Numbered from the stretch's first letter, positions 1 through 11,085 are shown. The stretch is 11,085 bases of DNA from Thermoproteaceae archaeon (GCA_020833025.1 JAJHRB010000051.1:1-11085), one strand, 5' to 3'. The notes: generated by a model not told the origin, from the letters alone. Program-made: numbers and translations.

Positions 1-2
1 GC

Positions 3-971
3 GTGCGCGCGTTATTTGCCATTGTGGCGCTGGCGGCGCTCGCGCTGGCGCAGTACGTCAGCTGGCACCCTCCCCACGCCTTTCTAGTGCAGGCCTACCC
101 GCTCAACGCGACTCACCTCGCCGCCTACGAGGGCGGCAGGGTGGTGTACATCGCTCAGCAGGGCATTGCCTTCAGCGGCTCGGGCGCCGAGGGGCAGGCA
201 GCGCTGCAGTACCTCAGCGCGCAGTGCAAGTACGTCGCCGTTGACGTGCTGAACGCCTCGGCAGTGGAGGGCGGCGAGCTGTGGCTCTCCGACGTCTACT
301 GCTCGGCGGACGGGAGGCAGTGGCTCTGGCTGAGGTGGCTGCCTCTCAGGTTTGCCGCCTACCGCGGCCGCGTCGAGTTCATCAACGCCACGAACGCCAC
401 TGTGAGCACGCCCGTGGGCCAGTTCGCCGGCTGCGTGCCCGCCGGCTGGTACCTCGACCCGGCCACGAAGGCCGTCTTCGCGCTGCCGCAATTCAACGCG
501 TCACTCCTCGCGGAGGTCCACAGGCTGAGCGCCGCCATTAGGGAGCTGAGGGCCCGGCTGCAGAGGAGCGAGTCTGAGGCCGGCCAGGCTGCCTCGCTCA
601 TCGCCCAGCTGAGGGCGCAGGTAAGCGCTCTCGAGGCCCAGCGGCTCTCGCTGGAGGAGGCCCTGAGGCAGAGAGAGTCCATGATGGCGGCCATGAGCGC
701 GAGCCTGCGCGCGCTAAGCGCGGAGAACGAGGCGCTGAGAGGGCAGGTTGAGAGGCTGAGGAGGGAGGCGGAGGAGCTCAGAGCCGCGCTGGCCGGGCTG
801 AACGCGACGTGCGCTTCCAGGGTCTCGCAGCTGGAGGCAGAGCTCCAGCTCGCCAAGGCGCAGGCCGCCGGGGAGCGGGGAGGCCCCGACGCGCTGCTGC
901 CGCTGCTGGCGGCGCTGGCCAGCATTGCCGTTGCGGCCGCCCTCTACAAGAGGAGAAGGGCGAGAGAGTAA
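3..971 (+). CDS. Cell-surface stalk protein (322 aa): signal peptide, globular head (possibly degenerate SNase-like), ~120-aa coiled coil, C-terminal transmembrane anchor with basic tail
   Basis: N-terminus MRALFAIVALAALALAQ is signal-peptide-like. A heptad-rich Leu/Ala/Glu/Arg segment spans about aa 165-287. The C-terminus is LLPLLAALASIAVAAALY-KRRRARE. Six N-x-S/T sequons and 4 Cys. The GTG start is at the window edge, so upstream context is not visible. Confidence 0.85.
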   Translation: MRALFAIVALAALALAQYVSWHPPHAFLVQAYPLNATHLAAYEGGRVVYIAQQGIAFSGSGAEGQAALQYLSAQCKYVAVDVLNASAVEGGELWLSDVYCSADGRQWLWLRWLPLRFAAYRGRVEFINATNATVSTPVGQFAGCVPAGWYLDPATKAVFALPQFNASLLAEVHRLSAAIRELRARLQRSESEAGQAASLIAQLRAQVSALEAQRLSLEEALRQRESMMAAMSASLRALSAENEALRGQVERLRREAEELRAALAGLNATCASRVSQLEAELQLAKAQAAGERGGPDALLPLLAALASIAVAAALYKRRRARE

Positions 972-972
972 C

Positions 973-985
973 TCACGGTTTTTCC
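973..985 (+). promoter_or_regulatory. Conserved upstream element copy 1 (TCACGGTTTTTCC), candidate non-canonical promoter
   Basis: T-run 979-983 ends 24 nt before ATG 1007. The spacer is C-rich with no Shine-Dalgarno. The same motif and spacing occur in the three other intergenic gaps. Confidence 0.6.
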
Positions 986-1006
986 CCTCCCCTCCCTCCT
1001 CTCTGC

Positions 1007-1453
1007 ATGGAGGACGTGGTGGCGGCCGTCGTTTTCATCGCGGCGCTCTCGGCGCTGCTTGCACTGGCCGCACTGACGCTCGAGCAGTACATGCCGGCGG
1101 GGGTCGTGGAGGCTCCAGTCGCGCCGGCCCACGACGCGCCCGCGAGGCGCATCTATGTCTACAACGACTCGGGAAGGCTTTACGCGGTGGAGTATGCCGG
1201 GAGCGACGCGGAGGCCTTCAGGAGGGCGGCCGGCGTGCCCGGATCCCTCGTTGCGGCCTTTGAGGTGTACCCAGGCGGGTACCGCTGCGCGAGGCGCGCG
1301 GGGGCTCCCGTCAGGATAGGCGACGACCCCTACACCGGCCTGTGGTGCCCGCCGCCGGTCGACGCAAATGCCGGCGCAGGCTGCGCGCCAATCGGGATTA
1401 CGTCGAGGGGCAGGTGGCTGCTGGTGCAGTACCGCTGCCCGGGCCTGCCGTGA
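1007..1453 (+). CDS. Small N-terminally anchored, pilin-like exported protein (148 aa)
   Basis: ATG 1007 is preferred over the ORF-track start at 809, which would overlap the previous gene by 163 nt. N-terminus MEDVVAAVVFIAALSALLALAAL is hydrophobic. Four Cys, one NDS sequon. The stop overlaps the next start (GTGA). Confidence 0.8.
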   Translation: MEDVVAAVVFIAALSALLALAALTLEQYMPAGVVEAPVAPAHDAPARRIYVYNDSGRLYAVEYAGSDAEAFRRAAGVPGSLVAAFEVYPGGYRCARRAGAPVRIGDDPYTGLWCPPPVDANAGAGCAPIGITSRGRWLLVQYRCPGLP

Positions 1454-2451
1454 TCTCCGTACGGGACTTGCTCATACTCGCGGGCCTCACGGCCCTCGCG
1501 GCTGCCGTGATAGCCTCGCTGCTTCCCGCCTACGAGGGCGTGTCAACCGTGCCGGCGTGCTCGGACTGCACCTTCAAGCTGACGGGCGAGTACAGAATCG
1601 TCCAGCACGGCAATTACGCATCTCTATACCTGGGCACGAGAGAGGTGGCGAGGTACGGCTGGGCTTATGCCGGGGGGAGGCCGATGAGAGAGGGCGAGGC
1701 AGTCGCGTGCAGCCCGATGTACGTCAGGGTGGTCGGCGGCCTTGCGTATGTGTCGTGCTCGGGCGCTCCCGCACCGCCGAACGGGACGGCGCCGCGGCTG
1801 CCCCTCAGGGCGTGCAGCCCGTACGCCTACGGCTGGGACGGCGCCTCTAACGCCACGCCCGCCAATTTGCCGCATCGCACGGTAACTCACGGCCCCGAGG
1901 CGTGGGTGTGGGTGGATGCCTCGGCCGGCAACCCGCGCCCCTCCTTAGTACTGCAGGTGGACGGCGCTGCAGGCGACGGCTTCGGCGTGGCCGCGCTGGC
2001 GGTGGGCGTGACCGGGCTAGGCATCAGCACAGGCGCGCGGATCTCAGTGGAGCACGCGTACGGCCGGGATTCGGGCGATGCCGAGAACAACGTAGCTTAC
2101 GTGCAGCTCAAGGTGAGAGCGCCGAACGGCTCCATCGCGTACCTGTATCTTGTCAGAGACGCGGGCGCCGGCATCACGCGCGTGTACAGCGTTGTCGACG
2201 GCGCCGCGCAGTATGTCTGCGACTACGTCATCGGCAGGGGCGCCGACAGCTGCCGGCCCGGCCATGTTGCCGTCAGGCTCGGTGCCCTCTCGGCGGCGTG
2301 GGCCGAGTTCTTCTCGGGCTCCGTGGAGCGGTACATAGGCAGGGGGAGTGTGGAGGCAATCGCGCTCGTGGCTGTCGATCGCGGCGGCTGTCCCGGCAGG
2401 GGCGACTGCGATTTCTGGATTCGCTGGGATAACTTGAGGGTAGACTGCTGA
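1450..2451 (+). CDS. N-terminally anchored exported protein (333 aa): pilin-like N-domain plus C-terminal beta-rich (lectin/CBM-like) domain; candidate adhesin or minor pilin
   Basis: GTG 1450 overlaps the TGA of the previous gene and gives MISVRDLLILAGLTALAAAVIASLL. Ten Cys and 3 sequons. A Pro-rich linker (GAPAPPNGTAPRLP) precedes alternating beta-strand patterns ending FWIRWDNLRVDC. The lectin-like fold is an inference. Confidence 0.8.
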   Translation: MISVRDLLILAGLTALAAAVIASLLPAYEGVSTVPACSDCTFKLTGEYRIVQHGNYASLYLGTREVARYGWAYAGGRPMREGEAVACSPMYVRVVGGLAYVSCSGAPAPPNGTAPRLPLRACSPYAYGWDGASNATPANLPHRTVTHGPEAWVWVDASAGNPRPSLVLQVDGAAGDGFGVAALAVGVTGLGISTGARISVEHAYGRDSGDAENNVAYVQLKVRAPNGSIAYLYLVRDAGAGITRVYSVVDGAAQYVCDYVIGRGADSCRPGHVAVRLGALSAAWAEFFSGSVERYIGRGSVEAIALVAVDRGGCPGRGDCDFWIRWDNLRVDC

Positions 2452-2453
2452 TC

Positions 2454-3095
2454 ATGTGGTCCGCGGCGTACGGCCTGATTGCAGTGGCCGTAGTTGCCTT
2501 CGTGGTTCTCTACGCAGCGGCCCACGCGCCGAGTCTCGCGCCGGCTAACGCCGCGGATGGGGTGTACCGCGCCAAGCTGCAGATAAAGCAGAGCCTGCCA
2601 GGCCTGCCGCGCGTCGAGAGGCCGGAGGACCTCGCGGATAACACGATATACGTCGCGAGGACCTTGCTTAGCGCCGGCAATGCCAGCTTTCCTGTCCACG
2701 TCCCTCTTGCATATGTGCTGGGCGGCGGCTACAGGATTGCCGCGTCCGTGCTAGAGTGCAAGGACTGGATTCTGCCGAGCGGGGAGCCCGCCGCTCTGTA
2801 CAGAATCGCGCTCTACCACCACGTGATCATGCCGTGGCTTGAAGTGCACGCCGCGATTCCGGCGAACGAGACGGACTTCTACATCAAGCTGTACGAGGCA
2901 TACCGCAAAAGCGGCAGGCCTCCCCTGCTCGGGTTCGACCGGGCCGGCTCCGGGCTCGTGCGCGTGAGGGCCGAGCACGCCCTGATCTACAACGCATCCT
3001 CGGGTCTCTACACGCTTTATGTAATCGCGCCGAGAAGGGCCGTGTACATCGTCATCGTCGACTACCCGCTGGAGCTGCCCCTGTCTTGCCCGTAA
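2454..3095 (+). CDS. N-terminally anchored exported protein (213 aa), unknown function
   Basis: ATG lies 2 nt after the previous stop. Hydrophobic helix LIAVAVVAFVVLYAAA, 2 Cys (one penultimate) and 3 sequons (NAS, NET, NAS). Confidence 0.85.
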   Translation: MWSAAYGLIAVAVVAFVVLYAAAHAPSLAPANAADGVYRAKLQIKQSLPGLPRVERPEDLADNTIYVARTLLSAGNASFPVHVPLAYVLGGGYRIAASVLECKDWILPSGEPAALYRIALYHHVIMPWLEVHAAIPANETDFYIKLYEAYRKSGRPPLLGFDRAGSGLVRVRAEHALIYNASSGLYTLYVIAPRRAVYIVIVDYPLELPLSCP

Positions 3096-3098
3096 GCC

Positions 3099-3111
3099 TC
3101 AGGAGTTTTCC
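3099..3111 (+). promoter_or_regulatory. Conserved upstream element copy 2 (TCAGGAGTTTTCC)
   Basis: T-run 3106-3109 ends 23 nt before GTG 3132. Confidence 0.6.
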
Positions 3112-3116
3112 TCCCC

Positions 3117-3132
3117 CGGCGGCCGGCCGCCG
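3117..3132. repeat. Perfect 16-bp all-GC palindrome CGGCGGCCGGCCGCCG abutting the start codon of the 1011-aa gene
   Basis: Read directly; it equals its own reverse complement, and the last G is the first base of GTG 3132. Function unknown. Confidence 0.7.
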
Positions 3133-6100
3133 TGCGCCTCGCGCTGCTCGCCCTCGTGACGCTTGCCGCCGGACTCTATGCAGCGAGCAACTGCAGTTAC
3201 CTCGGCTCCCTTGAGGTGGAAAGAACTGCCGTCGCGCGCGTTACGTTCTCATTCCACGCGCTCGCGCCGCTGGGCACCGGACGCGAGGTCGTAGTGGTGG
3301 CTGAGAATAGCGTTAGGAGTGCCGTCGTGTGGGGCATGGAGTTTCGCAATGCGAGCAGACTAGCCCTAGCCGCCGTGGCGGCTGACGCCAAGTGGGAGGG
3401 AGATCTCAACTACTCGATAACGCTGAATTACTACAGGCCGCGCGAGAGGTGGAGAGTCGGCAGGTACGCGTGCTACGTGAACGGGTCCTTCGCCGGCTAC
3501 TTTTACGTCGTCGAGGCAGAGCCGCCGAGGGAGACCAGAGCAGTCGCCTTCACTGTCGCGAGAGACCGCGCGTCGCATTATGCCAGCGTGACCTTCGAGG
3601 CATCGCTGCCGCCGGATCTCGCGCCCCTGTGCTACAGCCTCTCTGCCAGCGATAGCGGCATCTCGTGCGTGAAGTACGATGGCGCGAATTACATCGAGGG
3701 GGCCTCCTCGCCAGGCGTGTGGAGGGCCGTCGAGGTGAACGGGAGGAGGCCTGGCGGTGCCGTCTCGACAGGCACCGTCACTGCAGCAATTCCCGACCCA
3801 TGGCTCTACACGGACTGCTGCAGCGATCTCGGCGCTGGGACCGCGCTGCTGTCGACGGATCTCTCCAGCGCCGAGCACATGGGCAGCGCCCGCCGCAAGC
3901 CGTTCCTTACGAGAGTCGAGGTCTCGGTGGTCGCGCTGCCAGCGCGGTGGGGCGCCGTGGAGCTCAGGCCTCCGAGGCCTGTGCCTCTGTACGCGTCGCG
4001 CGTGCTCCAGAGGCCCGGCCTCCCGTACTGGAGCCCCCCGGAGTCCTTCAGGGTGAGCGAGGCGGGCAACGCCACGTGGATAGGCAGGGGGTGGAGGTGG
4101 GAGTGGACTCTGGCGTCGGTAGCCGTGAGGACCGGAATCGTGCTCGTGCCGTACGTCGCAGTTGACGCAGGCGGCGTCAGGGCAGTATCGCGGAATGTGA
4201 CGCTGCTGGTGCCGCTGGGCTCCGCCAGCGTCTACAGGGTGGCAGTCGTCTGGCACGCCCCGGCGCTTGGCGTGTGGGTCGGCTCGTACCCCGCGACATA
4301 TCTACGCGCCGTTGATGACCGCGGCAGCGTGCTCGCGCCGCATTACGAGGAGGCGGGGTCTCGGAGGAAGCTGGCGTACGCGGCCGCGAAGCGCGACGGC
4401 GGCATCAAATGGGCCGAGTTCGCAGCGGCAGTTGACGGAACCTTTGCGAGCGCCGTCACGGCCTGGTACGCGCCGCCGGACCCGTGCGCGCAGTGGCCGA
4501 GGCAGCTTTACGTCTGCAGACGCGCGCAGCACGTCTTCACGAAGGTAAACGGCACCTGGACGGGGTACTCAAAAGTCGGCAGGCCGGGAGCCCAGTGGCC
4601 CTGGAGAGTGCTCGCGCTAGTTGACTGGCTGGTTCCCGGCACGCCGGTGAGATGCGGCGCGGACAGCTTCAAGGACTTCGTGCATCTCGTCGCGGGGGAT
4701 CCGGTCCTTCACTACAACTACACCTACGCGCTGAGGAGCTGGCGCTTCAACCCCTCTACCGGCGACTGGGACATTCCAGACGTCTGCGTCCACCCGGCGC
4801 CGCAGGAGGTCTCGTTGCTCTACGCCGTCTACGGGACCCCGGACTACAGAAACACCACCTACGCGCGCGAGCTCTACTTCCAGTCAGCCGAGAGAGGGCC
4901 CTGGTTCTACAACTACGGCTTTCTTGACGCGAATGACAATACGCTCTGGCCGGCCGGCTGGACCGACGCGCTGCCCCTCGGCGTGGCCTCCATGGCCTCC
5001 GACTCTGCGGGCCCGTGGGCCGTGGCGCTGGTGCCCACCACGGCGTGCGAGTCGCTCATCTGCACGAGGCTCAGCGCAACGCTCTGGGGCCCCTCCCCTC
5101 CCGCCGCTCCCGACATTGCGCTTCCTGGCGCTGGCTACTCTCTCCTTATCGTTTACCTCGGCGACACGGCGAGAGAGATCACGCTGAGAGTGCGCGTGGA
5201 GATGGGGTACGTCGTCGAGAGCGTGTACGGCAGGGTCGAGCACAGACGGGTCGGGGACCGCGCACTCGTGGAGATATCGCGCGAGTGGCGCACGCTCGAC
5301 GCCGTGTACGCCGGGCCTGGGTGGCACGTCGACTACCGCCCGCTCCCCCCGTGCGGGCGCCTCGAGCTCGGCGAGAGGGCGGTGTACGTGACGCCTGACG
5401 ACTGGGAGGGGCCCGTCATGGTGACGCTGGAGGAGGTCGAGAGGAGCGCGTCTGGCGAGAGGGAGTTCGTCGTGGCGCGCTACCGCTTCGTCTTCTTTGT
5501 CTCTAGCGACGTGTCATACAGAATCGTGACGGACACCCCGGCGCCCGAGCGCCTCTCGACACCCTCCCTCAACATCACGGCACTGCTGTACGTGGGCGGC
5601 GTGCCGTACTTCCACGGGATCAATGCGTTCGGCGAGGGCGGGAGGCAGGTGCAGTTTGCATGCGTGCCAGCCGTAATGCTGGCCGCCCCGCTCCCGGCGC
5701 TGTCGGCCGCCCCCATCGCGGATCAAACATCGCAGCTCGCAGCGGCGGGGGACTTCTGGGGCGTTATCGAGCTGCTCGGCAGGCTCAGAGTTGAGAGCGC
5801 CTTCGTCAGGCCGCGCTTCGAGCTCCTGGACGCGCAGCGGGGTCTCGTCAGGGTCACGGCAGAAGGCCCAGTGCGCGGCTTTGCATTCTACCTACTGAGA
5901 GACGGGATGTGGGTCAAGGTCGCGGAGGCAGCCGGCAAGTGCGCGCTGGTGAACGCCTCGCGCGTACTTCCGTGGGACCCCCTTCTCGTGCTCCCGCTCG
6001 TTAGGCAGGAGGCGGCTGCCAGGCCCGGAGAGGCTGTCGTGCTGTGGCGCCCGGCGCCCACCTTGCTCTTCAAGGCGTGGGCCGACGCGGCCGGGTACCC

Positions 6101-6167
6101 GGGAGGCGCCGGCAGCGTCCTGAGGGACACCCGGGACGTCCAGGTACCTCGTGAGTGCTCGCGCTAG
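3132..6167 (+). CDS. Large secreted, probably N-glycosylated and disulfide-bonded beta-rich surface protein (1011 aa)
   Basis: Signal peptide MRLALLALVTLAAGLYAA. About 11 N-x-S/T sequons and 16 Cys. Trp/Tyr/Val-rich strand patterns, no clear C-terminal TM anchor, and no recognisable catalytic motif. Confidence 0.9.
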   Translation: MRLALLALVTLAAGLYAASNCSYLGSLEVERTAVARVTFSFHALAPLGTGREVVVVAENSVRSAVVWGMEFRNASRLALAAVAADAKWEGDLNYSITLNYYRPRERWRVGRYACYVNGSFAGYFYVVEAEPPRETRAVAFTVARDRASHYASVTFEASLPPDLAPLCYSLSASDSGISCVKYDGANYIEGASSPGVWRAVEVNGRRPGGAVSTGTVTAAIPDPWLYTDCCSDLGAGTALLSTDLSSAEHMGSARRKPFLTRVEVSVVALPARWGAVELRPPRPVPLYASRVLQRPGLPYWSPPESFRVSEAGNATWIGRGWRWEWTLASVAVRTGIVLVPYVAVDAGGVRAVSRNVTLLVPLGSASVYRVAVVWHAPALGVWVGSYPATYLRAVDDRGSVLAPHYEEAGSRRKLAYAAAKRDGGIKWAEFAAAVDGTFASAVTAWYAPPDPCAQWPRQLYVCRRAQHVFTKVNGTWTGYSKVGRPGAQWPWRVLALVDWLVPGTPVRCGADSFKDFVHLVAGDPVLHYNYTYALRSWRFNPSTGDWDIPDVCVHPAPQEVSLLYAVYGTPDYRNTTYARELYFQSAERGPWFYNYGFLDANDNTLWPAGWTDALPLGVASMASDSAGPWAVALVPTTACESLICTRLSATLWGPSPPAAPDIALPGAGYSLLIVYLGDTAREITLRVRVEMGYVVESVYGRVEHRRVGDRALVEISREWRTLDAVYAGPGWHVDYRPLPPCGRLELGERAVYVTPDDWEGPVMVTLEEVERSASGEREFVVARYRFVFFVSSDVSYRIVTDTPAPERLSTPSLNITALLYVGGVPYFHGINAFGEGGRQVQFACVPAVMLAAPLPALSAAPIADQTSQLAAAGDFWGVIELLGRLRVESAFVRPRFELLDAQRGLVRVTAEGPVRGFAFYLLRDGMWVKVAEAAGKCALVNASRVLPWDPLLVLPLVRQEAAARPGEAVVLWRPAPTLLFKAWADAAGYPGGAGSVLRDTRDVQVPRECSR

Positions 6168-6170
6168 GCC

Positions 6171-6659
6171 GTGTTAACGCTCCGGCACCTCCTAATCCTG
6201 GCAGCTGCTGTTGCCGCGACGGCAGCTGCCGCGGCGGCGATCCTGACAGCGCTACAAGGCGCGAGCCCTGCCGTGAGAGTCGTCGCGGCGTCTATCTTGG
6301 CAGAAAAGCCCGCCAGGGCGGACGCCCCCCTTGCCGTGAGGCAGTATCTTGCATACTACCGGCACGAGGGCAGGTGGGTCCTTGCGGAAGGGCCTGCCGG
6401 GGTGCCCGTGTACGCGCTGGGGCTTGGTGTCTGTCCCGGCGACATACGCCCGCTGCTGAACAGGGCCTACACGAGACAGAGCGCCATAATTCACCTAGCA
6501 GGGTGCTCTCTCGTCATGCCGCGGGCCGAGGACGGCGTGATTGTGCACTACGTCGCCACGTGCACTCTCGGGAGCGACTTCAGGCCGGAGCCGGCTGAGC
6601 TGGAATTGATCTACCAGGGCCGCCCGGTGAGGGTCAGGGTCGTGCTAGTGAACTGCTAG
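6171..6659 (+). CDS. Small N-terminally anchored, pilin-like exported protein (162 aa)
   Basis: GTG lies 3 nt after the previous stop, and an in-frame TAG just upstream fixes the start. N-terminus MLTLRHLLILAAAVAATAAAAAAIL. Four Cys, including the last residue. Confidence 0.85.
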   Translation: MLTLRHLLILAAAVAATAAAAAAILTALQGASPAVRVVAASILAEKPARADAPLAVRQYLAYYRHEGRWVLAEGPAGVPVYALGLGVCPGDIRPLLNRAYTRQSAIIHLAGCSLVMPRAEDGVIVHYVATCTLGSDFRPEPAELELIYQGRPVRVRVVLVNC

Positions 6660-6677
6660 CCCTGCAACCGCAGGCCA

Positions 6678-6690
6678 CTAGCACTTTTCC
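6678..6690 (+). promoter_or_regulatory. Conserved upstream element copy 3 (CTAGCACTTTTCC)
   Basis: T-run 6685-6688 ends 23 nt before ATG 6711. The 5' half diverges from the other three copies. Confidence 0.55.
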
Positions 6691-6710
6691 CGCCTCCTCC
6701 CACCTCCCTT

Positions 6711-6986
6711 ATGCGTGTTGAGCTGGCGCTAATTCCTGTAATACTCGCCCTCGCGGCCGCCGCCCTGACGTTCATGAAGCCGCTGGACGTGCGCAGTACA
6801 GACCTCTCGGCGCTGTTCCTCTACTGGCCGGAGGCGTATGCCTACGCGGAGAGGGGCGATCCCGCCGCGGTGTACAGAATTACTGGGCTCGTTGTCTGCG
6901 CCAATGCCAACGCCTCGGATGCGATAGACGCGCCGCCCGGCATTGCATTCAAGGCGCTGAATATCTACTGCCGCTTCAGGCCGTGA
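6711..6986 (+). CDS. Small N-terminally anchored, pilin-like protein (91 aa)
   Basis: MRVELALIPVILALAAAALTF: Glu4 followed by a hydrophobic helix. Two Cys, one NAS sequon. GTGA overlap with the next gene. Confidence 0.8.
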   Translation: MRVELALIPVILALAAAALTFMKPLDVRSTDLSALFLYWPEAYAYAERGDPAAVYRITGLVVCANANASDAIDAPPGIAFKALNIYCRFRP

Positions 6987-7282
6987 TAGAGGAGTACTTA
7001 GACGTGGTGGCGGTGACGGTGATGGCGGCAGCCGTCCTCGCGGCCCTCTCCGGGCTGGCACACGCCCCGACGCCCGCGGTGTGCAAGGCCGCCGAGATTG
7101 CACTCCAGAGCCCCGGCTCGGAGCTCGTTGTGTACGGCAAGTTCAGCGTGCATTACAACGGGCGCTACGTGTACCTCTCGTGCGGGCTCGCCGTGCCACG
7201 CGAGAGAGTCCTGGCAGTGGAGAGGACTGAGGGCTTGCTGAGAGTCGGGAGCACGCCCGACGGCAGGCTTTACGTGCGCTGA
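6983..7282 (+). CDS. Small N-terminally anchored, pilin-like protein (99 aa)
   Basis: The GTG overlaps the previous TGA. MIEEYLDVVAVTVMAAAVLAALSGL is followed by a short beta-rich domain with 2 Cys. Confidence 0.8.
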   Translation: MIEEYLDVVAVTVMAAAVLAALSGLAHAPTPAVCKAAEIALQSPGSELVVYGKFSVHYNGRYVYLSCGLAVPRERVLAVERTEGLLRVGSTPDGRLYVR

Positions 7283-7306
7283 AAAACAGAATCCCCCTCG
7301 GGGCCG

Positions 7307-7319
7307 TCAAGGGTTTTCC
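7307..7319 (+). promoter_or_regulatory. Conserved upstream element copy 4 (TCAAGGGTTTTCC)
   Basis: T-run 7314-7317 ends 23 nt before GTG 7340. Confidence 0.6.
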
Positions 7320-7339: not shown

Positions 7340-7636
7340 GTGGTCCTTAAGATCAGGAGGGGGGCCCTAGCGCAAATGCTGGAGGGAGAGGAAGGCGGGC
7401 GGCTTGACGCGCAGCGGGAGATCTTGAGTGCCGGTGACAGGAGGGAAGGCGGAGGGGCAGTAGAGGCGCCGGAGAGCCCTTGGGAGGACCTGCTCGTCAG
7501 ACTGCTAGCGTCGGCGCCAGAGGACGTCGTGCAGAAGCTTGTCAACTGCCTATCTCGCGACGACTTAATTAGAGTGCTCGAGCGCAAGAGCAAGGATCCA
7601 TATCTAAGACTTGCAATAATATTATTGAAAAAATGA
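7340..7636 (+). CDS. Small cytoplasmic protein (98 aa): flexible Gly/Glu-rich N-half and helical C-terminal domain; possible partner of the ParA/MinD ATPase
   Basis: No TM segment. Amphipathic helices WEDLLVRLLA...DDLIRVLERK...YLRLAIILLKK. ATGA overlap with the next gene. The start is supported by the motif spacing. Confidence 0.75.
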   Translation: MVLKIRRGALAQMLEGEEGGRLDAQREILSAGDRREGGGAVEAPESPWEDLLVRLLASAPEDVVQKLVNCLSRDDLIRVLERKSKDPYLRLAIILLKK

Positions 7637-7661
7637 TAAGTATAGGTTTTGCATATATTAA
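7601..7661. other. AT-rich island (12 G+C in 61 nt, ~20%) containing the perfect palindrome CAATAATATTATTG (7614-7627), spanning the junction into the ParA/MinD gene
   Basis: Counted directly from the sequence. It contrasts with the roughly two-thirds GC background. Confidence 0.8.
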
Positions 7662-8229
7662 GGGGGGTACTGGCAAGACCGTGCTCGCGACGTCCGCCGC
7701 GCTGTACTTAAACGCCGTGGGCGCGCCGGCGGCGCTAATTGACGCGTCGCCGGTGCCCATGGCCGCGCTGCTAATGGGCGCGAGCGCCAGCAGAGGGATG
7801 CACGAGGGCAGGCAGGGCGTTCCCGTGTTTAACCTGAGGGGCACCGGGGGGCTGCACGAGGCGCTTAAAGCGCTGGAGGCCGCCAGAGTGTCTGTAGTCG
7901 CGGTCGACCTCCCGCCCGCTCCCAGGACGCCGAGACTGGATATCGTTATCGCCGTGACGGACCCTCCCGGGCTGCACTTCGCGCAAGAGTTCAAGGCCGA
8001 CGCCTCCCTTACTATTCTAGCGCTGAACAAGTCTGACGGCGCGCCGAGCGTGGCAACGTCTATTGCAAATGCCGTGGTCGCGCTGCCGTACAGCCCCGGC
8101 GTTGAGAGGGCTTACCAGAGGCTCCTCCCGCCGATTCTTGTACACTCTGAGAGGGCGCCCTCGCTAGCTAGGTGGAAGCGCGCCTTCCTCGAGCTAATGC
8201 GCATCGTGGCGGAGGAGCTAAGAAGATGA
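7633..8229 (+). CDS. Short ParA/MinD/Soj-family (SIMIBI) P-loop ATPase (198 aa)
   Basis: Deviant Walker A KGGTGKT at the N-terminus, Walker A' ALIDASP, Walker B VAVDLPP, LNK motif and a downstream LPY. Subfamily (ParA vs MinD vs CpaE/TadZ-like) cannot be resolved by eye. Confidence 0.9.
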   Translation: MISIGFAYIKGGTGKTVLATSAALYLNAVGAPAALIDASPVPMAALLMGASASRGMHEGRQGVPVFNLRGTGGLHEALKALEAARVSVVAVDLPPAPRTPRLDIVIAVTDPPGLHFAQEFKADASLTILALNKSDGAPSVATSIANAVVALPYSPGVERAYQRLLPPILVHSERAPSLARWKRAFLELMRIVAEELRR

Positions 8230-8654
8230 CCCCGCGTCACCCGCACATAGAGGTCCTTCACAGGATGAAGCAAGAAGTGGAGGCCATTGAAAGGGAGATC
8301 GCAGAGAGGGAGAGGCAGGCCGCGGGAGGGGCATTAAGGGATGTGGCCAGGTGGGACGCAAAGTACGCCAGAGAGTGGAATTCAGAGTATATCACAACCG
8401 GGCTGGAGGCCTTCCTCTCGTCCTACCGCGCGAGGCCTGTCTTTGAGGAGCTGTGGCGCCTTGCGCTGCAGTGCGCCGACGCGCGCTTTTGCTACCGCGT
8501 GCTAGCGCATGCAAGATTGTCGCGCTCAAGCGAGGCGCTGGCCGCCATTAAAAGAGCCGTGAGGACCGGCGCGAATCTCGAGCGCGTGCTTAAAGCGCTC
8601 TGGGACGGCAGGATCGAGGATGCAGTGAGGCTGGCTGGCCGTGAGGAGGCCTAA
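8226..8654 (+). CDS. Small cytoplasmic all-helical protein (142 aa) with N-terminal coiled coil
   Basis: ATG 8226 overlaps the ParA stop (ATGA) and is preferred over 8172. Coiled-coil-like EVLHRMKQEVEAIEREIAERERQ, no TM segment. Confidence 0.8.
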   Translation: MTPRHPHIEVLHRMKQEVEAIEREIAERERQAAGGALRDVARWDAKYAREWNSEYITTGLEAFLSSYRARPVFEELWRLALQCADARFCYRVLAHARLSRSSEALAAIKRAVRTGANLERVLKALWDGRIEDAVRLAGREEA

Positions 8655-10647
8655 CATTTACGCGTACGCGACTATTGCCGCGCTGGCCTCTGCGTCACTA
8701 GTGCCGGACCCGCTGCTAGCCGCGCTGGCCGCGCTGTCTGCTGCCGTCTGGGGCGAGTGGCTGCTCTTATGGGCCTACCCGCGCCCTCTCGAGCCTTACC
8801 GGGAGAGAGTAGAAATCGGGGGGTTCAAGGCGGCGTACGACCCGAGGCGAGGGCTGTATCACTTCTTTTGGCGCGCAGAGCCCAACAGGAGCGAGCTTGG
8901 CGCCAGCGCAGTGCCAACGCTGCACGAGCTCTACGCCCAGCTGTCGCTGAGGCCCGGCGAGTACATTGCCGTGATCCAGCACGGCGCCGAGCGATACATC
9001 CGCTTCACGACGAGAAATCCCGACGCGCGGAGGCTCGAGGGCCTCGAGGCAGTGCTCGGCCTCTACTTCATCCTGAGGAGGGATGCCCCGTGGCTCCCGC
9101 CGAGGATTAGGCCGTCCCGGGCGCTTTATCTCATTGCCGCGCTTCCCGCGCTTCTCGCGGCGCGCAATCCCGGCATGCTGCTGGCGGCGCTGGCGCTGCT
9201 GTACCGCGCGCACGCCGTCATTAAGTGGTACAGAGAGGCAGTTCCTGACCTGGCCTTCACGACCGTGAGCACCAAGCGCGAGCTTGGCACGTCCCGGCAG
9301 GTTCTCGAGACTCTCGCAGGCGCCGAGGCGGCTGCCGCGGGCAGAATGGATAGGTGGGCTGTCGTGTTAGCGCCTAGGCCCGAGTCCCAGGTCGAGAGGG
9401 AGTTCGGGCGCGCGTACGAGTCGCCGGCCGAGAGAAAGGGAGTCGTGATAAGGCTGCACAGAACCTCCCAGCTTCTCGAGAGGATGATAAAGTATGACGA
9501 GAGGCCGATATACCTGCAGGCATTCGGGGACAGGGAGCTCGCAACACAGCTGGAGATCAAGAGGAGCAGGCTCGCGAACGTGCTGCTCTGGCTGCCGAGC
9601 GAGACATACATGACGAAGGCGCTGTCGTGCGACCTGGCCAGGTTCCCCGTGCTCTACGGCGGCAAGCTAATTGACGTCGGGCGGAAGCTTCTCGTCGGCC
9701 ACGACAGGTTCGGGAGGCCCGTCGAGATAGACCTGGACGCCATGCCGACAGCTCACGCAGTCGTGCTGGGCCCCAGCGGCATGGGCAAGAGCTGGGCCGT
9801 TGCCACTCTCTTGAGGAGAATTGCAGAGCAGCACAAAGACATTAGCGTGGTGGTAATAGACCCGCACGGCGACTACAGCAAGCTCGCCGAGCTCATAGGC
9901 GCGTCCGTCTACGAGGTCCCGAGGCAGCTCCCGCCTCTAGATACCATTAAGGGGAGCCGGTATGCACACGCGCTGCTGGAGGAGTTTGGACTCGCTGGCG
10001 AGGAGCTCGAAGACGCCGCCGCCCTCGTGGCGAGAGACGCGGGCGTTAACGACATTACATTCGTGACGCCGCCGGCAGACTCCCACGTGGTTTACGAGTT
10101 GCGCGTGCTGAGAGGAGACGCGCACGCCCAAGCGTTCTTCGTATCGCTGTTGTTGCTGTGGCACCTATCCGCCTACGGCCGCAGGCCGCCGGCCGAGAGG
10201 CTGGAGCGCATTATTGTTGTCGACGAGGCCGCGCTGCTGGCGCACACGGCCCGCGTGTCTGAGACGGGACTGGTAATAAACGTGCCGCTGAACTTAATAC
10301 GGCAGTACAGCATGGGCGGCAGGAAGTACGGCTTTGCGGTATGGCTCGTGGCGCAGCTCGCCCGGCACGTGCCCGAGGACATAATCGAGAATGCCGGCTT
10401 CGTGCTCCAGCTCGGCGGGACCAGACGGGCGCTGAGAAGGTCAGCGGAGATACTGCTCCTTGACAGGCACGACCTTGAGTACCTCAGAAGCGCCGCGACG
10501 CCTCGCGAGACTGCGAGTAGCCAGCGCGAGGGAGGCCCGCGCCCCTACGCCGCGGGCATTCTCTACATGTCGCCGAGAGACATAGTCTACCACGTGAGGA
10601 TACCCCTCGACCCAGAGCTGAAGGAGGCTCCGGCGGGAGTGCCATGA
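8641..10647 (+). CDS. Membrane-anchored HerA/VirB4 (FtsK-HerA superfamily, DUF87-like) ATPase (668 aa), CedB/TedB-like architecture
   Basis: VG.D..G.PV.IDL...HAVVLG lead-in, Walker A GPSGMGKS (nt 9769-9792), VVVIDPHGDY, Walker B IIVVDEAA (Asp at nt 10222), GRKYG arginine finger, and LVAQ...IIENAG. Two hydrophobic hairpins in the N-terminal third (about aa 7-45 and 160-195). Confidence 0.9.
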   Translation: MRRPNIYAYATIAALASASLVPDPLLAALAALSAAVWGEWLLLWAYPRPLEPYRERVEIGGFKAAYDPRRGLYHFFWRAEPNRSELGASAVPTLHELYAQLSLRPGEYIAVIQHGAERYIRFTTRNPDARRLEGLEAVLGLYFILRRDAPWLPPRIRPSRALYLIAALPALLAARNPGMLLAALALLYRAHAVIKWYREAVPDLAFTTVSTKRELGTSRQVLETLAGAEAAAAGRMDRWAVVLAPRPESQVEREFGRAYESPAERKGVVIRLHRTSQLLERMIKYDERPIYLQAFGDRELATQLEIKRSRLANVLLWLPSETYMTKALSCDLARFPVLYGGKLIDVGRKLLVGHDRFGRPVEIDLDAMPTAHAVVLGPSGMGKSWAVATLLRRIAEQHKDISVVVIDPHGDYSKLAELIGASVYEVPRQLPPLDTIKGSRYAHALLEEFGLAGEELEDAAALVARDAGVNDITFVTPPADSHVVYELRVLRGDAHAQAFFVSLLLLWHLSAYGRRPPAERLERIIVVDEAALLAHTARVSETGLVINVPLNLIRQYSMGGRKYGFAVWLVAQLARHVPEDIIENAGFVLQLGGTRRALRRSAEILLLDRHDLEYLRSAATPRETASSQREGGPRPYAAGILYMSPRDIVYHVRIPLDPELKEAPAGVP

Positions 10648-11085
10648 GCGCCGACTGGAGGGACTGCATCTACAGGCCCCACCTCTGCGGGCAGGGCGAC
10701 GAGCAGAGAGCAGAGGGCTTGAGAGAGCTGCTAGCAGAGCTTCACGGCCGGCCTGCCAGCTCCATGCGGGCGCGCTGGCAGCGCGAGAGGCCCGAGGCCC
10801 TGATACCTGCCGCGCACGGACTGCCTGTCAGACACGGCGGCTTTCTGCTCGCCAGCTACTGGCACGTCGTGAGGGAGCCTCACGCGGCGGCGGGCGATAT
10901 CGTTGTGGTGAGAGGTCCCGGCGAGTACTACATCCTGCGCCGCGCGAAAAGGGCAGACGCGTGGATCGAGGCGCCGCCCGAGCTCATGGTTGCGGGACGC
11001 GTAGATAGGCGCCTGTGCGTCTACGGCTTCGTGCTGCTGCGAGACATTGAGCGCGTGGCAGAGCTCGTCGGGGCGGGCACTCACG
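10644..11085 (+). CDS. Hypothetical protein, 3'-truncated by the window end (>147 aa); absent from the ORF track
   Basis: ATGA overlap with the ATPase stop. The frame stays open to the end of the window: MSADWRDCIYRPHLCGQGDEQRAEGLRELLAELHGRP...LCVYGFVLLRDIERVAELVGAGTH. Codon usage matches the neighbours. Confidence 0.8.
   Translation, partial: MSADWRDCIYRPHLCGQGDEQRAEGLRELLAELHGRPASSMRARWQRERPEALIPAAHGLPVRHGGFLLASYWHVVREPHAAAGDIVVVRGPGEYYILRRAKRADAWIEAPPELMVAGRVDRRLCVYGFVLLRDIERVAELVGAGTH

Follow-up and report, generated by a model that had tools for sequence, protein, structure and literature searches.

What does the hexamer TTTTCC do in front of the transcription units of an 11,085-bp Pyrobaculum contig? 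The window that we analyzed is the entire contig (C15) of a metagenome-assembled genome (MAG; 1.56 Mb in 126 contigs, 63% GC), in which an open reading frame (ORF) map together with a codon-usage caller identifies 13 genes, g01 to g13 (Table 1), all co-oriented. An initial annotation of this sequence described TTTTCC at a near-constant distance before four start codons and interpreted the sites as promoters of a dedicated gene set. Comparison of the window with its own genome and with other members of the genus leads us to a related view: each TTTT(T)CC is very probably the core of a leaderless archaeal promoter that opens one transcription unit. Under this view no new mechanism is involved: the motif is the ordinary archaeal promoter in a locus-specific form. 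Its GG and CC flanks appear to be under selection, and would define a promoter class specific to two kinds of loci: (i) a type-IV-pilus-like gene cluster, and (ii) DNA-transfer-like modules, some of them neighboring, with a TedB-like ATPase gene.

TTTTCC sites are locked to start codons

TTTTCC occurs exactly four times on the two strands of the window, always on the + strand (980, 3106, 6685, and 7314), which agrees with the earlier count made by eye. The number by itself is unremarkable, because shuffled windows contain 1.03 copies on average and 4 of 200 shuffles reach four. MAG-wide, the density is 0.23 per kb, with 41% of copies within the 14% of the sequence that is non-coding. In the window, each copy lies in one of the four real intergenic gaps, and the last T stands 24, 23, 23, and 23 nt before the start codons ATG 1007, GTG 3132, ATG 6711, and GTG 7340, as first noted. 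By a hand estimate, four sites placed at random would each lie 22-25 nt upstream of any of the 13 starts, and on the correct strand, with a probability of ~3e-11. The space between the previous stop and the T-run varies, at 7, 10, 25, and 31 nt; the 8, 11, 26, and 32 nt given in the initial annotation follow another counting convention. We ruled out a chance origin of the sites from these placement statistics and from conservation in relatives (see below).

Relative to the start codon, the T-runs occupy positions -28 to -24 or -26 to -23. The spacers that follow are 64% C and 6% A, and the Shine-Dalgarno words GGAG, GAGG, and GGTG are absent from all four, so that their description as C-rich and free of a Shine-Dalgarno sequence stands. 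The base at -1 is C, C, T, and C, in each case preceding A or G.

The sites coincide with the TATA position of the genome

Across ~1,600 predicted genes of the MAG, A/T content upstream of the start peaks at -26 to -22. The 653 genes that bear a TATA box show A at -32 to -30, the position of the B recognition element (BRE), then T at -28 to -25 and A at -24 to -21; C occupies -1 in 61% of them, and the purine at +1 is that of the start codon. The A/T peak and the C at -1 indicate that leaderless first genes dominate in the MAG. The ten mapped P. aerophilum transcripts cited in PMC2151090 are leaderless.

The commonest box words in the MAG are TTTTAA, TTTTTA, TTAAAA, and GCTTTT. The T-runs of the window coincide with the T-half of this box and CC stands at its A-half, where canonical boxes of the MAG have only 2-6% C. 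An 8-bp A/T-rich box with an A-rich 3' half is absent from the motif sites, which keep 4-5 A/T base pairs and then CC; we therefore filed the motif as a BRE/TATA variant. The proposal that the A-rich part of the TATA box is replaced thus holds insofar as CC takes the place of the A-half, but the element is not truly non-canonical. An A/T-rich box at the genome's own TATA position is present at the window sites and at 74 of 85 orthologous sites (23-24 nt), and the initiator signature of a pyrimidine at -1 and a purine at +1 is present in the window. We propose that the TATA-binding protein (TBP) would bind the T-run, that transcription factor B (TFB) would read AA(G/A)G, and that transcription would begin at or beside the start codon.

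The motif is conserved across Pyrobaculum

The initial annotation had suggested looking at orthologous loci, and we did so in 17 syntenic loci from 16 genomes of the genus. Six classes of junction were compared: 111-aa/398-aa, 398-aa/pilin-like, pilin-like/g01, g01/g02, g04/g05, and g06/g07, where the first three involve upstream genes of the cluster. At 85 of 97 junctions, the downstream start is preceded, at a fixed distance, by a T-run and then C. The last T lies 23 nt before the start codon at 38 sites, 24 nt at 36, 25 nt at 7, 26 nt at 3, and 20 nt at 1. A logo of the 82 distinct sites reads T (64%), A (95%), A (93%), G/A, G, TTTTT, C, C (91%), c, with A in 9% at the fourth position of the T-run; neither AA nor the second C had been required in the search. 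The AA coincides with the BRE A-peak of the genome and the T-run on the T-half of its TATA box. The 82 spacers, ~20 nt long and 68% pyrimidine, do not align across species; all but one of them end in C or T at -1 (81 of 82), and ATG serves as the start codon at 77 of the 82 sites.

The distance to the upstream stop, by comparison, ranges from -21 to 341 nt over the 85 sites. Its mode is 2 nt, because a TAA stop often supplies the AA of the motif, and the commonest layout, TAA, 2 nt, and T5, is found at 30 of the 85 junctions. Archaeal U-tract terminators lie just after the stop, and T5 is a known archaeal termination signal; the T-runs might hence be intrinsic oligo-T terminators of the upstream unit, alone or as part of a terminator/promoter cassette. 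However, it is the distance to the next start that is fixed, and a U-tract would not need the conserved AA, GG, and CC. The TTTATCC variants and the T4 runs of the window would make poor U-tracts, and in the MAG runs of T4 or longer follow convergent genes in 12% of cases against 13% for A4 or longer, which is no enrichment. Since spacing, flanks, run length, and the statistics of convergent genes all oppose it, termination as the only function is very unlikely, and we consider the explanation unlikely even with the cassette included. An extra terminator role of T5 directly after TAA is possible.

The motif follows the organization of transcription units. It precedes g05 at 17 of 17 g04/g05 junctions, one of them a weak variant, and g07 at 15 of 17 g06/g07 junctions. 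At the g01/g02 junction, orthologous TAAGGTTTTTCC is present in four loci (L033, L036, L037, and L052), and seven loci lack the motif, in most of which g01 and g02 abut. The operon-internal genes g03, g04, g06, and g08 and the ATPase gene, which abut or overlap their predecessor, lack the motif in every locus. One motif per transcription unit and none before abutting genes is a promoter pattern, and the footprint and the genome profile together uphold the initial assignment of the sites as promoters of leaderless first genes. In the TedB-like modules, AAGGTTTTTCC or AAGATTTATCC lies 22-24 nt before g09 homologues in six loci (L022, L023, L026, L027, L034, and L035), and AAGGTTT(T/A)TCC lies 22-26 nt before g09-like, ParA-like, and other genes in G002, G004, G006, G008, and G011. 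The presence of ParA- or MinD-like genes in both the pilus-like cluster and these modules might point to a site unrelated to initiation, such as a centromere-like site for ParA-like ATPases. We regard this as exceedingly improbable, as the strict spacing of 23-26 nt to start codons, the co-orientation with genes, and the single copy per transcription unit with none before internal genes are features of promoters and not of centromere repeats.

As a control, we examined the promoter of TFB1 in 15 genomes of the genus. It reads AAAAG followed by TTTATATA, TTTTTATA, or CTTATAAA, which is canonical, drifts between genomes, and never contains CC. We note that 13 of 14 fetched TFB1 loci (L081-L093) carry two tandem BRE/TATA copies, GAAAAG then TTTATATA, the second of which ends only ~7 nt before the ATG. 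This tandem layout is conserved across the genus and may serve autoregulation or the use of an alternative start.

The four window sites are worn-down copies of the TAAGGTTTTTCC promoter variant. They are the most eroded in the genus: AAGG is lost and T5 has become T4 at three of the four. Of the purine/A-rich BRE, only the remnants listed in Table 1 are left in the window, and the TCA/G part is what has survived of the AAGG conserved in relatives. A longer 13-mer pattern proposed initially, TCAnGnnTTTTCC, fits three sites only, is not significant, and is superseded by the genus consensus. Two further junctions of the MAG's cluster (L039:3950-3990 and L039:6590-6625) have eroded to GATTTCC and CTCTTCC; in these motifs, AAGGGATTTCC and GGGCTCTTCC, TTCC is kept at the same distance, with its last T exactly 23 nt before the start. 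Because TTCC and the 23-nt spacing survive in eroded junctions, the data hint that TTCC, rather than A/T richness, may be the selected part. In this high-GC MAG, erosion has reduced the motif to TTTTCC, with TTCC and its spacing kept.

Promoter-positioned copies concentrate at two kinds of loci

A T-run with CC at promoter distance precedes 14 genes of the MAG, against ~320 genes with an A/T dinucleotide at those positions. Seven of the 14 belong to the cluster that spans contigs C66 and C15 (Fisher p = 4e-11). In G002, AGGTTTWTCC occurs 32 times compared with 8 for the reversed control; nine of the 32 are on the gene strand of the 23-kb cluster region, and those within fetched loci are all promoter-positioned. 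Among the dispersed sites of this genome, at most ~3 of 20 have a start codon at promoter distance, and one precedes another ParA-like gene.

A positional scan of the kind that the initial annotation had proposed was carried out genus-wide. A search of 18 genomes for AANNTTTTTCC-N20-23-ATG returned 103 matches and a reversed-pattern control 40; the source MAG itself has zero matches to this pattern. Assigned manually by position, 68 matches belong to the pilus-like cluster and 20 to TedB-like modules, which leaves 15 at other places. With only 15 elsewhere and a control of 40, the entire excess lies in these two kinds of loci, and the expectation of a restricted gene set is borne out for the genus: promoter-positioned T5-CC occurs almost only there. 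Two arguments favor selection on the flanks: the exact sequence persists at 5-7 junctions in 16 genomes whereas the spacers vary freely, and promoter-positioned copies elsewhere are at chance level.

Several points weigh against this interpretation. In the window, AA is missing at three of four sites and the A/T tract has shrunk to 4 bp; the copies there could be weak or partly decayed, and one junction of the MAG's cluster has eroded as far as CTCTTCC. The other seven genes of the MAG with T-run and CC are unrelated (thermopsin, L14e, DsrC, HD-CE, a methyltransferase, DUF72, and one orphan), and the class is therefore not strictly exclusive there; a wider regulon in the MAG was rejected for the same reason. 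The start codon is taken as the transcription start site on the basis of the genome-wide profile and of the published P. aerophilum leaderless transcripts that PMC2151090 cites. A home-made codon-usage caller and the ORF map supplied the gene and start calls, and counts such as the 85 conserved sites are non-independent because the genomes are kin.

Candidate readers of the motif

We considered which factor might read the class-specific part of the motif. The initial annotation had inferred that the genes need an activator or an alternative TFB or TBP and are likely silent under standard growth; the analysis found nothing in support of either idea. No TFB is specific to the genus: Pyrobaculum shares TFB1 and the ~300-aa and ~160-aa paralogues with sister genera in which the cluster is missing. 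The TFB2 and TFB3-like genes are without the motif, as the short paralogue has a canonical A/T box and the ~300-aa paralogue is operon-internal with a Shine-Dalgarno sequence. Among TFB paralogues, none tracks the motif loci or is driven by the motif. Nothing ties either paralogue to the motif, since the complement is the same without the cluster and the paralogue genes lack the motif, and on these grounds we rejected an alternative TFB. Promoter-specific use of a TFB paralogue is possible. We also set aside the 111-aa protein of the cluster as a cluster-encoded regulator. It looks helix-turn-helix-like by sequence; its AlphaFold model (predicted local distance difference test score 91.6) has six helices and is all-helical, and Foldseek found no PDB match at E <= 0.001, so that neither lends support.

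These negative results, together with the lack of any DNA-binding protein identified in the cluster (the 111-aa protein being without a PDB match), are what one would expect if the motif were an ordinary weak TATA variant for basal TBP and TFB alone, its uniformity reflecting tuning of expression level. T-run with CC also precedes L14e, DsrC, thermopsin, and other housekeeping genes of the MAG, which suggests that the basal machinery can use it. Against this, the motif is near-invariant over many junctions and genomes whereas the control TATA box drifts, copies in promoter position at other loci do not exceed the control level, TTCC is kept where the T-run has eroded, and selection on non-A/T flanks is unexpected for plain TBP binding. 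We regard the weak-TATA explanation as a serious contender, with appreciably less than an even chance of being correct.

If the sites are promoters, it is close to an even call, leaning slightly to the negative, whether a dedicated factor or paralogue-specific TFB contacts read the class-specific part; what remains would be tuning of basal strength. A broader proposal is that T5-CC is the signature of a small dedicated regulon, in which a factor (a promoter-specifically used TFB paralogue or a regulator) would read the GG/CC-flanked T-run and co-express the pilus-like machine with the TedB-like modules, some of them mobile. We put this forward as speculation and consider it rather doubtful. 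If it is true, mobile modules have adopted the pilus promoter of the host to fire alongside it.

The finding is useful in several respects. A 12-nt signature almost only before one pilus-like cluster and TedB-like modules is a concrete, testable handle, a natural case of selection acting on the bases next to an archaeal TATA box, and a practical marker for such loci and their start codons in Pyrobaculum genomes. To our knowledge, almost nothing is known about the regulation of surface filaments or DNA exchange in Thermoproteales, none of which is genetically tractable. Should a dedicated factor exist, Crenarchaea would have a second regulon for pili plus DNA transfer, one that evolved independently.

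Locus content and neighborhood

Coordinates of the promoters and genes in the window are given in Table 1.

Table 1. Promoter elements and genes in the 11,085-bp window
Feature	Position	Strand	Description
Putative promoter of g02-g03-g04	973..985	+	TCACGG BRE-like remnant, T5, CC; last T 24 nt before ATG 1007
Spacer from T-run-CC to start codon	986..1006	+	Pyrimidine-rich, without Shine-Dalgarno sequence
Putative promoter of g05-g06	3099..3111	+	TCAGGAG, TTTT, CC; last T 23 nt before GTG 3132
Putative promoter of g07-g08	6678..6690	+	CTAGCAC, TTTT, CC; last T 23 nt before ATG 6711
Putative promoter of g09-g13 (TedB-like module)	7307..7319	+	TCAAGGG, TTTT, CC; last T 23 nt before GTG 7340
g01	3..971	+	5'-truncated by contig end, continues from C66; N-terminal hydrophobic helix, coiled coil, C-terminal transmembrane segment
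g02, g03, g04	1007..3095	+	Small proteins, each starting with a hydrophobic helix; no motif before g03 and g04, which adjoin or overlap the gene before them
g05, g06	3132..6659	+	g05 1011 aa, signal-peptide-like N-terminus, genus-specific
g07, g08	6711..7282	+	91 and 99 aa, N-terminal hydrophobic helices; syntenic in 17/17 loci
g09-g13	7340..11084	+	g09 small, conserved; g10 ParA-like; g11; g12 HerA/VirB4/FtsK-like ATPase; g13 3'-truncated (Pfam, NCBIfam)

Every protein from g01 to g08 has a hydrophobic helix at its N-terminus. Of 17 other Pyrobaculum genomes, 15 have g05, and the two without it are 61% and 74% complete; none of 24 genomes from sister genera or families has the gene. The g05 product has no Pfam, PHROG, or NCBIfam match. 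The end of contig C66 (L039:12930-13056) overlaps the start of the window (1-127), which makes the contigs contiguous and extends the cluster upstream. Five genes are found there, encoding a MinD/ParA-like ATPase, a PilB/FlaI/VirB11-family ATPase (Pfam T2SSE, 37 bits with a cut-off of 24.9), and proteins of 111, 398, and 163 aa. The 111-aa protein (L039:6246-6578) shows 51-61% identity in tblastn matches and belongs to no Pfam family, and the 398-aa protein is a polytopic membrane protein. The 163-aa, pilin-like protein (L039:7870-8358) carries a bacterial-style prepilin signature, RG/LTTVE with Glu at +5, followed by a hydrophobic helix; it has no sequence match among solved structures, including the P. 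arsenaticum type IV pilus. We read the cluster as a putative genus-specific type-IV-filament-like machine. In the MAG, ~4.5 kb with a PaREP1-family gene and opposite-strand genes is inserted between the pilin-like gene and g01, and g01 has lost its T5-CC promoter; a TTTTAA is found ~53 nt upstream of the g01 GTG.

The right part of the window belongs to a module that occurs in other contexts as well. The g09 product (window 7340-7636; homologues in L031-L051) represents a family of 72-116 aa with a conserved C-terminal W..LV.AL..MP...DPY.KLALLLL, for which no family match was found. In relatives, members occur in the pilus-like cluster, between the ATPase gene and the 111-aa gene, and in TedB-like modules; in the MAG, the family is absent from the cluster position. 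Close homologues of g12 have a patchy distribution in the genus and occur in multiple copies, at six places in G006 and at four in G008. The modules of these two genomes (L023-L027, L034, and L035) have near-identical promoters and encode ParA-like proteins of 232 and 165 aa, a g09-like protein of 78 aa, the ATPase, and proteins of 154 and 310 aa; they look like an uncharacterized family of integrated mobile elements of Pyrobaculum, as judged from gene content. G002, a complete genome, has two full pilus-like clusters (C1 494-518 kb and 613-628 kb; L028, L031, L032, and L049), one of which adjoins a TedB-like module as in the window. A provirus or plasmid origin of the window was rejected: the g12 ATPase has no tblastn match in phage or plasmid collections, there is no tRNA near the loci, and the cluster in the left part of the window is chromosomal and belongs to the genus core. 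A search of the window against PHROGs gave coiled-coil noise and a single ParA match only.

Comparison with known systems

Our literature search found neither a paper with the motif strings in an archaeal setting nor a comparable promoter study in Pyrobaculum, and a Yellowstone metatranscriptome paper contained nothing on Pyrobaculum pili. The closest relative of the motif in structure is the canonical leaderless BRE/TATA promoter of Pyrobaculum, with which it shares the position relative to the start, in relatives an A-rich BRE position two bases upstream of the T-run, a pyrimidine at -1 and a purine at +1, the lack of a Shine-Dalgarno sequence, and the occurrence of one element per transcription unit. 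It differs in having CC(C) instead of the A-rich 3' half, which leaves 5 A/T base pairs (4 in the window), in having GG between the BRE-like AA and the T-run, and in its pyrimidine-rich spacer. The motif is also near-invariant and locus-restricted, whereas canonical boxes drift.

The Ted (Thermoproteales exchange of DNA) system of P. calidifontis includes TedB, a VirB4-like ATPase, and a VirC1/ParA-like protein (PMC9905601). In the window, the ParA-like g10 and the HerA/VirB4-like g12, a TedB-like ATPase with a membrane helix at its N-terminus, resemble the TedB region; TedA and TedC were not seen in the window, where the contig ends. A g12 homologue with 37% identity is found in G017, presumably at the Ted locus, judging by gene numbering. 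In contrast to the window, the T5-CC motif is missing from the loci of G017, G019, and other genera, and the motif-bearing modules are patchy and multi-copy, like mobile elements.

A promoter signature of similar design is known from viruses. In 2004, Kessler et al. reportedly described a GTC trinucleotide right after the TATA-like box as a virus-specific promoter signature of the Sulfolobus rudiviruses SIRV1 and SIRV2. In both cases, a conserved signature containing G or C right downstream of a TATA-like box marks one gene set. The sequence and the host order are different, and the Pyrobaculum signature is carried mainly by a chromosomal cluster found throughout the genus instead of by a virus.

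The nearest regulatory analogue would be the element of the UV-inducible ups, ced, and tfb3 promoters of Sulfolobales, an A(N)TTTC hexamer at -44 to -39 that lies upstream of a separate BRE/TATA (PMC5817253), with regulation via Orc1-2 and TFB3 (PMC6061795, PMC6101591). Both are short, non-palindromic, T-rich elements ending in C that are common to separate transcription units and are found at a type IV pilus operon and a DNA-transfer system. Unlike A(N)TTTC, the Pyrobaculum motif is itself at the TATA position, with a C-rich spacer and no TATA following; the sequences are unlike, and the TTTATCC variants are without TTTC. We therefore rejected identity with the UV-response element on the basis of position and sequence. 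If the proposed regulon exists, it would correspond in Thermoproteales to the UV-induced pairing of Ups and Ced in Sulfolobales.

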